A stretch of DNA of 64,000 nt from Isurus oxyrinchus (lineage: Eukaryota). The stretch is from contig JANJGN010000006.1 of assembly GCA_026770705.1 (NCBI GenBank), forward strand, positions 39,246,001-39,310,000, written 5' to 3'. The notes beneath the pieces are model-generated. The model ran no database searches. It was given only the letters and a program-made list of their open reading frames with translations, and was not told where the DNA came from. Positions 45,325 through 49,520 of the stretch are shown piece after piece. Made by a program: the position numbers and the translations under genes. How positions within the stretch are numbered: the stretch's first letter is position 1; every line of letters starts with the position of its first letter.

Positions 45325-46060
45325 CACTTCACAGGAGCAATAGAAAACAAAGTATGAAACCGAGCTGCATGAGGAAGTTTTAAGTCAGATGACCAAAGAT
45401 TTGGTCAAAGTAGTGGTTTTAAGAAGTGCTTTAAAGGACGAAAGCGAGGTAAAGAGGTGGAGAGGCGTAGGGAGGTTATTCCAGAACTTGGGCCTAGGCA
45501 ACTGAAGGTGAGACCACATTAGTGGAATGATTAAAATTGGGGATACAAAGTAAGCCAAAATTAGAGGAGCGCAGATATCTCAAATGGTTATGGGGCTGGA
45601 GGAGATTACCGAGATAGGCAGGGGCAAGGCCATAGAGGGATTTGAAGAATGAGAATTTTAAAATCTCATTGCTTGACCGGGAGGCAGTGTAGGTCAGCGA
45701 GTACATGGGTGATAGAAGAACAAGACTTGGTGTGAGTTAAGCTAGGGGCAGCAGAGTTTTGAATGAACTCAAGTTTACAGAGGGTAGAATGTGGGAAACC
45801 AGCCAGGAGTCTGTCAGAATAGTCAATCCAGAGATAACAAAGGCATGAAAGAGGGTTTCAGCAGCAAATGAGCTGAGGCAGGGGTGAAGTCAGATGATGC
45901 TACAGAGGTGAAAATAGGCTGTCTTAGTGATGGCACAAGTATGAAGGTCTCAGGGTCAAATGTGCCAGCAATGTTGCAAATAGACTGGTTTAATCTCTAA
46001 CTATCTCCTGGGAGAGGAGTGGAATCAGTATCTATGGAATAGACTTTGGAGCAGGGATTG
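45325..46060 (-). mobile_element. L2 LINE 3' fragment
   Basis: Minus strand encodes FKSLYGLAPAYLGNLLQPHNHLRYLRSS, an L2 ORF2 C-terminal motif. Confidence 0.75.
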
Positions 46061-46574
46061 AAAACAACACGTGTACTAAATAACTTACAGTTTGTATTCT
46101 GTAGAGCAACTAATTGGTACTTTGGGTCTGAAATTTGTTTTGTACTGTTTTTTGGGTAGGGTATGGTTGGTGGCTAAATAAACACAGCAGAGGCATGACT
46201 GAAATTGGACCTCAGACCTCATCAGATAATTCCAATGGACTGCATATGTCAGCTGGATATCTAGAGGCAGCTGTTAACTCCAATAATTTTATATAAGGGA
46301 AGAATGAATCTGAAGCTGGTCTTTTACCTCGAGCAAGTTTATTCTCCAGCCAGCTCAACAAAATGACAAGCTCCTAATTCCTTGCCCCAATGAAGTGTTA
46401 CAGCTGTGCCTATTTATTGGTGAGCCAATGCCCATCACCTGTTTTAACAATGCAATTATCTTAATGTATTTACCATACAATGTAATTGCCAGTCAACAAG
46501 ATGATTGTTACTGGACCTTGACAATGTAATTGCTGATACATTAACAACTCACAAGTTTGAAGGACAAATTTTTT

Positions 46575-48234
46575 GCTTGGCCTAAATAGCCAAGTGGTTA
46601 TGGTACTGGGTTTGTAACCCCAAGATCAAGAGTTCAAGTCTCGCAATGGCAAACTATGAAACAATGTGACTTCATCTGAAACAGATGGAAATGGGTTTGT
46701 GCTCGAAAGAGTATCAAGAGTTCAAATCTCACAATGGCAAAACTATCAAGAGTTCAAATCTCACAATGGCAAACTATGAAACAATATAACTTCATCTGAA
46801 ACAGATGGAAATGGGTTTGTACTCGAAAGAGTTACAACCTTCATCTTTAGCTTGGCCTAAATAGCCAAGTGGTTATGGTACTGGGTTTGTAACCCCAAGA
46901 TCAAGAGTTCAAATCTCACAGTGGCAAACCATGAAACAATGTAATTTCATCTGAAACAGATGGAAACTGGTTTGTACTCGAAAGAGTTACTGTCAATTCA
47001 GGATTCTTTGCTTGGCCTAAATAGCCAAGTGGTTATGGTACTGGGTTTGTAACCCCAAGATCGAGAGTTCAGATCTCACAATGGCAAAACTATGAAACAA
47101 TGTAACTTCATCTGAAACAGATGGAAACGGATTTGTACTCAAAAGAGTATCAAGAGTTCAAATCTCACAATGGCAAACTATGCAACAATGTAACTTCATC
47201 TGAAACAGATGGAAACAGGTTTGTACTCGAAAGAGTTACACTCCCTGTGCCTGCACTCATACCTTAGCTTGGCCTAAATAGCCAAGTGGTTACGGTACTG
47301 GGTTTGTAACCCCAAGATCAAGAGTTCAAATCTCACAATGGCAAACTATGAAACAATGTAACTGCATCTGAAACAGATGGAAACGGGTTTGTACTCGAAA
47401 GAGTTACACTGGTATTTTTGTGCCTATCTTGGCCGAGCGGTCTAAGATGCTGTGTTAAAAGAGCCATTTCGTTGGGGGCGTGGGCTCAAATCCCACAGTT
47501 CCAATGAGCTGCTGTTCGCGACGTATCACTAAATCGTTAGACGGGGAAGCTTCGGATGAAGTGTGCCGTGTTATATTTTGGGCTTGGCCTAAATAGCCAA
47601 GTGGTTACGGTACTGGGTTTGTAACCCCAAGATCGAGAGTTCAACTCTCGCAATGGCAAACTATGAAACAATGTAACTTCATCTGAAACAGATGGAAACG
47701 GGTTTGTGCTCGAAAGAGTATCAAGAGTTCAAATCTCACAATGGCAAAAACTATGAAACAATGTAACTTCATCTGAGACAGATGGAAACGGGTTTGTGCT
47801 CGAAAGAGTATCAAGAGTTCAAATCTCACAATGGCAAACTATGAAACAATGTAACTTCATCTGAAACAGATGGAAACGGGTTTGTGCTCGAAAGAGTATC
47901 AAGAGTTCAAATCTCACAATGGCTAACTATGAAACAATGTAACTTCATCTGAATAGGAACAGATGGAAACGTGTTTGTACTCGAAAGAGTTACATTTGAG
48001 CTTGGCCTAAATAGCCAAGTGGTTATGGTACTGGGTTTGTAACCCCAAGATCAAGAGTTCAAATCTCACAATGGTAGACTATGAAACTATGTAACTTCAT
48101 CTGAAACAGATGGAAACGGGTTTGTACTCAAAAGAGTTACATCTAAAAAAAAATAATCAAGAGTTCAAATCTCACAATGGCAAACAATGTAACTTCATCT
48201 GAAATAGATGGAAACGGGTTTGTGCTCGAAAGAG
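46575..48234 (+). mobile_element. Head-to-tail array of a 142-nt tRNA-headed SINE-like unit with unique spacers; single retro-insertion with a 15-bp TSD
   Basis: Full units start at 46575, 46850, 47010, 47267, 47582 and 48000 (gcttggcctaaatagccaagtgg...). A-box TAGCCAAGTGG, B-box GAGTTCAAATC, anticodon-like loop TTTGTAA. TSD ttgaaggacaaattt at 46557-46571 and 48235-48249. Confidence 0.85.
47420..47579 (+). pseudogene. tRNA-Leu-like head plus ~75-nt trailer ending in TTTT, embedded in the array
   Basis: tggccgagcggtctaag ... gggggcgtgggctcaaatcccac matches the D-arm, long variable arm and T-arm of vertebrate tRNA-Leu; acceptor and anticodon stems do not pair. Confidence 0.75.
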
Positions 48235-49269
48235 TTGAAGGACAAATTTCAACTGGCAGCAGCACTGAGGTATGTTCTGGTGAAGGGGGCGTGGGCTAAT
48301 ATGAGCTGTCAGTGGCACATTTGTCAGTGACTGTCGTGCACCCAGGAAGACCACTCCTATTTCCCCTCTGCTCAGCATCAAGGTAAGTTTAAAAGAAAAT
48401 ACTATTTTGGTTGTGTCTTCCAGCTGTCCCATTAAGGACCACTGCTTAGGCTACTGAAAACCCTAAACCCTGAGGAGACCGTCCTCCGTCCTATCAAATA
48501 TCTGACAGAAGTCCTAAAACAGGCGTATCTGGTTGCTCATTAACATATGCCTGTTTTGGGGTGGCCACCCTGAATGCTGGTATATCACCCATCCCAGTGT
48601 GGCACAAACATATTTCAGGAGCCCTTGAGTATGAGAGATGGCATTGGAAGATTGAAGCTTTTTGCTTCCATTTTATGTCCAATGAATAGGCATAGCAGAA
48701 TCCATTCACCCCCATTCCATTTTTTATCCATCATTTTTTGTGGTTCATTAGTAAGGTACAGAAAGCAAACCTGTGATGCAGCCTTCTGTATTTCCCTTTG
48801 TGCATCTTTTAATTCCTAATCATGTACTTTGCAAGCATGTTAAAGAAATCACTAAAACTAATGCAGAGAGGAAAATAATGGCGGATACATGTATATATTA
48901 AAATATCACACTTGTCAGGGAATTTGCCATAAGGTTGTAACATTTTATGTCTTTAATGCAATATGCCATGCTGTACTGCCTTGAAATATTAACATAGAAC
49001 ACTTAATAAATTTGCCCAAAATCTTTATCTCCACCGGTTTATAGGAAGTTTTCACTTCTTTAAAACAAGTGGGTTAAAGTCTTCAGTAAGGTAGTGAAGG
49101 GAGATTTTTTTTAGGTGAACATGTTCAAGTGTTCAGACATTAATATCCCAGAATGCAGTTTCAGGACCTTTATGTTAAAAAGAAACAACACAAAATCATG
49201 CTGCCAATATTTGGTTAATGGAACAAATAATTAGTGGTCATGTGTTCCCTTTATTGCTTGTTGTTACAG

Positions 49270-49520
49270 CAAAGCGATTTTGCAAGAACTCCAGTTCAGC
49301 CAGCAGCACGACGAGTAGCTATGCTCCCAGCAGTAGCAGCAGCAGTATCAGCTGTGGTGGAGGCAGCAGTGCCAGCAGCACCTCGAGCAAGAGCAGCTTC
49401 GACTACACGCATGACATGGAGGCAGCACACATGGCAGCCACGGCAATTCTGAATTTGTCCACCAGGTGCCGCGAGATGCCTCAGAACCTCTCGACCAAGC
49501 CTCAGGATCTGTGTGCTAGG
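49270..49520 (+). CDS. MYT1L: Myelin transcription factor 1-like, next coding exon (phase 1 start, phase 0 end)
   Basis: Encodes (A)[83 protein letters not shown]; acceptor ttgttacag and donor AGG|gtaagt; phase-compatible with the exon ending at 15285 (G+CA = Ala). Confidence 0.95.

Follow-up and report, generated by a model that had tools for sequence, protein, structure and literature searches.

Chained tRNA-derived SINE units in an Isurus oxyrinchus intron: probable joining of about seven donor RNAs in one insertion

Background

In a 1.7-kb array in the genome of Isurus oxyrinchus, six units of a tRNA-derived short interspersed element (SINE) and a tRNA-like piece lie inside one perfect 15-bp target site duplication (TSD). 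How could so many units, separated by different spacers, have come to share a single duplication? The original prediction was that one insertion had joined about eight independent Pol III transcripts end to end.

Reverse transcriptases (RTs) are known to be capable of such joining. The RTs of R2 and L1 jump serially between templates in vitro with non-templated addition and thus produce concatemers, as described in the available parts of the relevant papers (PMC8594491, PMC10830420). Chimeric retrocopies of the U6/L1, Alu/L1, 5S/L1 and tRNA/L1 kinds combine unrelated RNAs in one event with one TSD, and a template switch or a ligation has been proposed for them (PMC13174262); RtcB-type ligation is the form suggested for U6/L1 chimeras.

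Data and samples

The window is the whole stretch of DNA analysed here, 64,000 nucleotides at C6:39246001-39310000 of the 4.98-Gb genome; array coordinates are given within it. Other contigs and loci are designated by C and L numbers, respectively. The SINE family was sampled by taking the first 100 head matches on C1 in position order, which gave 54 clusters after parsing (53 by coordinates). The partner LINE was reached from a 117-nt sequence seen within arrays, which led to a young LINE with 308 candidates, 40 of which were scored.

Results

Architecture of the array

The six tRNA-headed units are all present at the predicted positions on the + strand (Table 1), followed by a headless last piece that runs from 48156 to about 48234-48235. 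The predicted bracketing repeat is single and perfect: no repeated 10-mer precedes any of the seven junctions once the unit sequence and the outer TSD are set aside. As a chance control, 20,000 pairs of 30-bp windows were drawn at random, and 2 of the pairs had an exact 15-mer in common. With the six heads go 13 starts of the body (q51 onward), among them four 88-bp copies in tandem at 47632-47990; a part of the array is thus duplicated sequence.

Table 1. Features of the array and its surroundings in window coordinates. "Trailer" denotes a putative 3' read-through sequence
Feature	Position	Strand	Remarks
Left TSD copy, 15 bp	46557..46571	+	100% identical pair; single copy in related species B
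Three extra T after left TSD	46572-46574		
Unit 1: tRNA-Thr(UGU)-like head, body, partial body, body	46575..46836	+	
Trailer s1, ends TCTTT + A	46837..46849	+	Behind units in 4 other arrays
Unit 2: head and one body	46850..46990	+	
Trailer s2, ends TTCTTT	46991..47009	+	Candidate donor L037 (C1)
Unit 3: head and two bodies	47010..47240	+	
Trailer s3	47241..47266	+	Donor L033 (C11)
Unit 4	47267..47408	+	Last 92 nt = last body of L092 (C9)
Trailer s4a: 9 nt = L092 TSD/flank, then extra T and a few letters	47409..47424	+	
Putative captured non-SINE RNA: degenerate tRNA-like copy and ~65-nt 3' trailer to TTTT	47425..47580	+	
Unit 5: head and four 88-bp bodies	47582..47994	+	Then TTT + GA (47995-47999)
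Unit 6, A-rich spacer s6 (48142-48155) and headless body	48000..48234	+	Same block at L117
Right TSD copy	48235..48249	+	Identical to left copy
MYT1/MYT1L-family host-gene exon	49272..49502	+	Pfam MYT1, E 2.5e-21

The array lies in intron-like sequence upstream of the MYT1-family exon and on the same strand as the gene, in agreement with the predicted location in a host-gene intron. The spacers had been described as mutually unrelated, with none duplicated. This is true within the array; yet the same spacers recur elsewhere in the genome, and the spacer of 173 nt consists of two parts, a 16-nt trailer and a separate tRNA-like RNA copy.

ARAGORN called no tRNA in the window, and an Rfam search of 46400-48400 at E <=5 revealed neither a ribozyme nor another family. 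We considered a hammerhead reading of a 3' three-way junction and rejected it, as the core does not fit (judged by eye). No pieces of the partner Tx1 LINE were found within the window. At 45500-46000 there is a G/A-skewed old repeat with high read depth, which we take to resemble a reversed L2/CR1-type LINE fragment.

An empty site in a related species

The expected empty orthologous site with a single 15-mer is present in related species B, where the flank is ~98% identical to the window. A contig match begins at 48235, and its loose 5' end corresponds to window positions 46527-46556 with 2 differences, in both of the B runs examined. Species B thus carries the 15-mer once and lacks the array, which marks the repeat as a true TSD and the insertion as young.

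Spacers trace to donor loci

Sequence comparison indicates that the spacers are 3' read-through trailers of separate donor copies and not foreign DNA. Five of the six recur behind a unit elsewhere, with other neighbours, and three have a rare variant in common with their other carriers. Donors lie on C11, C9 and C26; L037 on C1 is a weaker candidate.

The end of the unit together with s3 was found at 6 places including the window, with 0 control matches. At L033, s3 is genomic flank: it starts with the TSD of that insertion (13/14 letters) and extends to TTTT. The window and four other carriers keep ~25-62 nt of it, cut at differing lengths and each followed by different sequence; the window copy stops well short of the TTTT of its donor. 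The spacer s2 is present at 4 places including the window and forms the flank at L037, where it begins with an imperfect TSD (12/14). The spacer s1 occurs at 5 places, the window and others on C16, C18, C19 and C24, always inside an array with differing neighbours, and ends in all carriers with TCTT(T) and a few variable letters. A search at <=1 mismatch found no donor flank for s1. The last body before s1 (that of unit 1 in the window) has a TATAAC variant in 5/5 carriers, compared with 5/162 sampled bodies.

The identity between the end of unit 4 and the last body of L092 includes a variant present in 0/169 sampled bodies. Only one other locus, again L092, carries s4a, which begins with the L092 TSD; the s4a pattern search gave 1 control match, so this link rests on the common rare variant and the TSD. 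The GGTAGAC variant of unit 6 was seen in 1/133 sampled bodies, and that one belongs to L117, the only other locus with s6. Because unit 6, s6 and the headless body recur there as a block with the same rare variant, they likely derive from one transcript, which was likely the first template copied.

The piece at 47425-47580 is 97% identical to a tRNA-like gene at C26:25.83 Mb (L042), ends at the TTTT of this donor and matches only its own C26 cluster and the window. It has no match in Rfam, the neighbour of the donor gene is an Rfam tRNA, and the piece itself is presumably Leu-like. Given its capture in the array, one C26 tRNA-like gene is apparently transcribed in the germline. The region C26:22-39 Mb (L042-L055) holds a dispersed cluster of degenerate tRNA-like genes with flanks in common.

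None of the 14 other spacer carriers (five for s3, three for s2, four for s1, one each for s4a and s6) has a neighbouring spacer in common with the window array. An array copied as one composite element would show the same units and spacers in the same order at many loci; the neighbours of these carriers are all different.

The donor matches are imperfect: five bodies at L037 stand against a single one in unit 2, L092 contains two and differs from unit 4 in the head, and unit 3 shows about a dozen differences from L033 (by eye) next to an identical trailer. Extra switching, CpG decay or intermediate donors are therefore required. Among the s3 carriers L031-L036 the trailers are identical and the upstream SINE part varies in positions and in body number, a pattern that suggests homologous template switching or CpG decay.

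The SINE family and its joins

The unit is 142 nt long. The head has 17,470 exact matches in the genome, and exact head-to-tail joins in which the gap is 1-30 nt number 4,634. The head aligns to the Rfam tRNA model over positions 1-71 with anticodon UGU; the window copies score 20.8-27.7 bits (cut-off 29), and other copies, e.g., L015 with 38.7 bits, pass. By its tRNA-type head, short length, lack of coding capacity, dispersed high copy number, TSDs and LINE-like 3' end, we classify the element as a tRNA-derived SINE (SINE2). The head and the T-run endings suggest transcription by Pol III.

More than one head is present in 23 of the 54 C1 clusters, and a unit on the opposite strand in none of them. 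A TSD of 11-17 bp was detected in 31/54 clusters, 16 of these TSDs starting with TACA. In 12 of the 31 single-head clusters no TSD of at least 11 bp was detected; insertion without a TSD thus exists. The 107 joins before a head in the C1 sample fall into 46 TSD-like, 46 foreign and 15 too short to class, these classes being a rough heuristic in which the rows of L115, L125 and L128 look misfiled. After removal of within-locus duplicates, 13/37 foreign spacers of these heuristic classes end with TTT and 0-3 nt, against a background of 8.7% (p 8e-6); the other 24/37 have no TTT ending.

The two kinds of joins point to two array-building processes, re-insertion or duplication with a TSD and joining without one. 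The window array is of the TSD-less type only. The pattern of one outer TSD and non-recurring spacers, originally proposed as a test for every array, describes the window array, but about half of the scorable joins elsewhere belong to TSD-type tandems. Similarly, unequal crossing-over, which had been excluded by the lack of spacer duplication, is indeed excluded for the window array, but monomers of unit and spacer do repeat at L110 and L175. The concatenated layout as such is a common habit of this 17,000-copy family rather than a one-off.

Several other features were seen in the sampled loci. Arrays of several kb with higher-order duplications are present at L101-L103, L110 and L175 and apparently represent early satellite-like growth out of SINE chains. 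TSD-separated tandems of non-identical units (L139, L144, L156, L158, L170) are frequent even at ordinary sites; they could result from re-priming at a regenerated target within one event instead of later re-insertion. At L015:431-1642 and L068:724-1614, SINE pieces are opposite in orientation to the rest of the locus, possibly due to twin priming or nested insertion. Finally, 9/54 clusters lie at one site in an old repeat of at least 3 kb with DDE_Tnp_4 (Harbinger-like) remnants (~1560-1700 when oriented, L197-L201).

Host RNAs captured at other loci

SINE heads are joined to the 3' end of 5S rRNA at 49 places and to the 3'-end motif of U6 at 21, counts that include a few places neighbouring within one array; both sets have variable junction letters and 0 control matches. 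In 7 of the 18 5S loci examined, 5S lies between SINE or LINE pieces. A TSD surrounds the whole 5S chimera in 6/18 loci and was undetected in 12/18. For U6, 4/5 fetched loci pass Rfam, two of them within arrays. Pre-tRNA-like copies with their flanks are found in spacers of L156, L175 and L188. Since the tRNA-like RNA, 5S and U6 do not have the 3' end common to the SINE and the LINE, their most plausible role is that of jump acceptors.

The partner LINE

Full-length copies of the LINE are ~7 kb. The copy at L097 has an open stretch of 1251 codons with RVT_1, a weak zf-RVT and a weak N-terminal Exo_endo_phos match, and an ORF1 with one stop. The best homologue of ORF2 is the Xenopus Tx1 149-kDa protein (48% identity over 95%, 1217 bits), and matches of 66% identity are found in a ray and a shark. 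This best match and the APE endonuclease and RT domains place the LINE, as far as homology can tell, in the Tx1 clade.

In the younger subfamily, 24/28 LINE ends lead directly into the SINE from q51 onward, and in a short-tailed subfamily the last ~16 nt are common with the SINE. LINE fragments were found in 10/54 sampled clusters and, at L064 and L082, lie within SINE arrays under one TSD. A target preference of the Tx1 type may be reflected in the 9/54 SINE clusters at the Harbinger-like site, the others being dispersed. The common 3' end and common targets make it likely that this LINE drives SINE insertion. The 3' tail of the SINE folds modestly better than shuffles (z -2.66, -2.58); two LINE 3' ends fold no better than chance (z 0.41, 0.30).

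The original prediction named R2 as an example of a jumping enzyme. An R2-type RT does not agree with the data: the partner RT is closest in the PDB to L1 ORF2 (E 4e-68, against 1e-16 for R2), and an element with two ORFs and an N-terminal Exo_endo_phos domain does not fit the single-ORF type with a restriction-like endonuclease.

At the 5' junctions of L096, L097, L098, L059, L069, L083 and L160, full-length LINE copies are preceded by a 12-nt piece of the SINE body, which also occurs behind the LINE 3' end, and then by a piece resembling the preferred target; tandem LINE-LINE joins occur. The 12-nt piece may be an inherited 5' end or may reflect targeting of the SINE itself.

Discussion

A probable course of the insertion

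In our opinion, the block probably represents a young SINE insertion composed of about seven copied RNAs that stem from different donor loci and were joined during one target-primed reverse transcription by a Tx1-type RT through about six end-to-end template jumps. One insertion of independent Pol III transcripts, as originally proposed, agrees with the empty site, the donor loci and the captured 5S and U6. The count of eight does not hold: at L117, too, the final piece without a head accompanies unit 6 and its spacer, so the number of RNAs is about seven.

Dispersed SINE copies carry internal tRNA-type heads, and the array spacers correspond to downstream flanks of donor copies. Pol III would read through a donor SINE into its flank, often up to a T-run. 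The ORF2 protein of the Tx1 element would then nick the target with a stagger of ~15 nt and prime on the right-hand RNA through a microhomology of a few bases (AGT/T here, usually TACA). At the RNA's 5' end, the RT would add 0-4 letters and jump to the 3' end, or sometimes to an internal point, of another RNA, which may be a SINE, pre-tRNA-like, 5S, U6 or LINE RNA. The six or so jumps would run from right to left. The product has one outer TSD, none inside, and all its parts point the same way. Repeats of the 88-bp body were inherited within transcripts, and homologous switching likely altered their number. The genome sequence alone does not have the power to prove that all joins were made in one reaction.

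Alternative explanations

Separate Pol III RNAs could have been ligated to a concatemer RNA by an RtcB-type activity before one reverse transcription. This would give the same single TSD, orientation and donor-specific trailers, and the purines before the heads could be the RNAs' own 5' leaders. Ligation is also an unresolved alternative to template switching for sense-oriented chimeras in the part of the U6/L1 study available (PMC13174262). We nevertheless consider it unlikely for this array. The extra letters at the internal joins are like those at the outer DNA junction (G, AG, GG, TG), where no RNA ligation takes place, and the cuts in many of the acceptor pieces are internal and vary in position. 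Moreover, Pol III primary transcripts bear a 5'-triphosphate and a 3'-OH and are thereby poor substrates for RtcB, and six serial ligations would be required.

Quite improbable, in our view, is stepwise growth, in which successive SINE copies with their trailers were inserted at the previous 5' junction without duplications. Members of this family commonly insert more than once at a site, as the 46/107 TSD-like joins indicate, and such repeat insertion is known for SINEU-3 (PMC4494074) and tandem transposable elements (PMC5932611) from the accessible text of these papers; the single-head clusters with no detectable TSD (12/31) also fit. However, repeat insertions here leave a copy of the TSD between units, and the window has none at its six internal joins. 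At the observed rate, six TSD-less insertions in a row have a probability of ~0.003, before exact landing at the heads is counted. The lack of a common 3' end in the tRNA-like RNA, 5S and U6 and the fully empty site of species B also argue against gradual growth.

It is very hard to believe that the block was copied from a single composite element that already existed, or that it is an assembly artefact. No contig spans the array and the sub-block of unit 6, s6 and body was inherited together, but each searched spacer recurs with other neighbours, no other locus was found to repeat the order, and matches to the tRNA-like piece are confined to its own cluster and the window. A repeat collapse would not yield a perfect TSD matching the empty orthologous site, and source-sample contigs (not independent) lead from the right flank into the end of the unit.

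Comparison with known systems

Joining of several RNAs by template jumps, our preferred explanation, is similar to U6/L1-type chimeras in that unrelated RNAs were inserted in one event under one TSD. As far as the consulted text on those chimeras goes (PMC13174262), they are two-part, an RNA plus L1, and 5S and tRNA appear in them for the most part in truncated, antisense form. The chains described here contain up to about seven RNAs and are usually anchored by a SINE, the joins are common, and the 5S and U6 pieces, which are often full-length, have the sense orientation throughout the joins searched.

The SINEU/Tx1-Mar pair of crocodilians is, according to the sections seen of its description (PMC4494074), a case in which a Tx1 element that prefers a target inside a DNA transposon mobilises a SINE, with TSD-separated tandems and repeated 5' additions by template jump; our Harbinger-like (DDE_Tnp_4) hotspot parallels that of Tx1-Mar and Mariner. 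In those sections SINEU has snRNA heads, single 5' additions and no LINE with the same 3' end. The present family has tRNA heads, a 3' end that matches a LINE and multi-donor chains with trailers.

Xenopus Tx1 (Tx1L) and the partner LINE both have two ORFs, an APE endonuclease, an RT and a zinc-binding tail; the partner LINE differs in its TSD of ~14-16 bp, its apparently loose target preference and its younger subfamily that ends in the SINE 3' half (24/28 copies). In vitro, the RTs of R2 and L1 likewise make one cDNA from several end-to-end templates with non-templated letters at the joins, but the work as available to us (PMC8594491, PMC10830420) is biochemistry of purified enzymes, and here we deal with the genomic record of an APE-type Tx1 element. 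Double insertion of tandem transposable elements, in the form outlined in the accessible text (PMC5932611), accounts for the TSD-separated half of the SINE joins and for later expansion by unequal exchange (L110, L175), whereas the window array has no internal TSD. A SINE-derived satellite grown by unequal crossing-over was rejected for the window array, in which no spacer is repeated.

The CRISPR-like layout pointed out originally is a superficial likeness with no function indicated, the spacers being, in all appearance, donor trailers. A CRISPR array was rejected because the spacers are flanks of the host's own donor loci or small-RNA copies and the repeats vary in body number.

Our literature search, which lay outside Repbase, Dfam, subscription journals and paper supplements, found no description of this SINE family or of donor-traceable multi-RNA concatemers formed in vivo. 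Two-part chimeras and serial jumping in vitro are already known; what is new is the length of the chains, their frequency and the traceability of donors. The array is a family-wide variant of a known mechanism and not a new kind of system.

Conclusions

Serial template jumping by non-LTR RTs is known mainly in vitro and genomic chimeras elsewhere are two-part, as far as the cited sources could be consulted; in this genome, chains of many RNAs are common. As trailers are retained, each piece is traceable to a donor locus, and a single genome thereby allows two questions to be put to the test: how many of the SINE copies serve as sources, and whether the RNAs are joined by RT jumping or by RNA ligation. 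The finding points to an RT that is jump-prone by nature and shows how satellite-like arrays can arise from dispersed SINEs.

We lean, with some reserve, towards the view that this vertebrate Tx1/SINE pair routinely inserts by serial end-to-end template jumping. If so, the genome would hold many fossil cDNA concatemers that sample the germline Pol III transcriptome, namely trailer-tagged SINE RNAs, 5S, U6 and pre-tRNAs, along with LINE RNA. Active source loci and germline-transcribed small-RNA genes could then be read directly from the concatemers.
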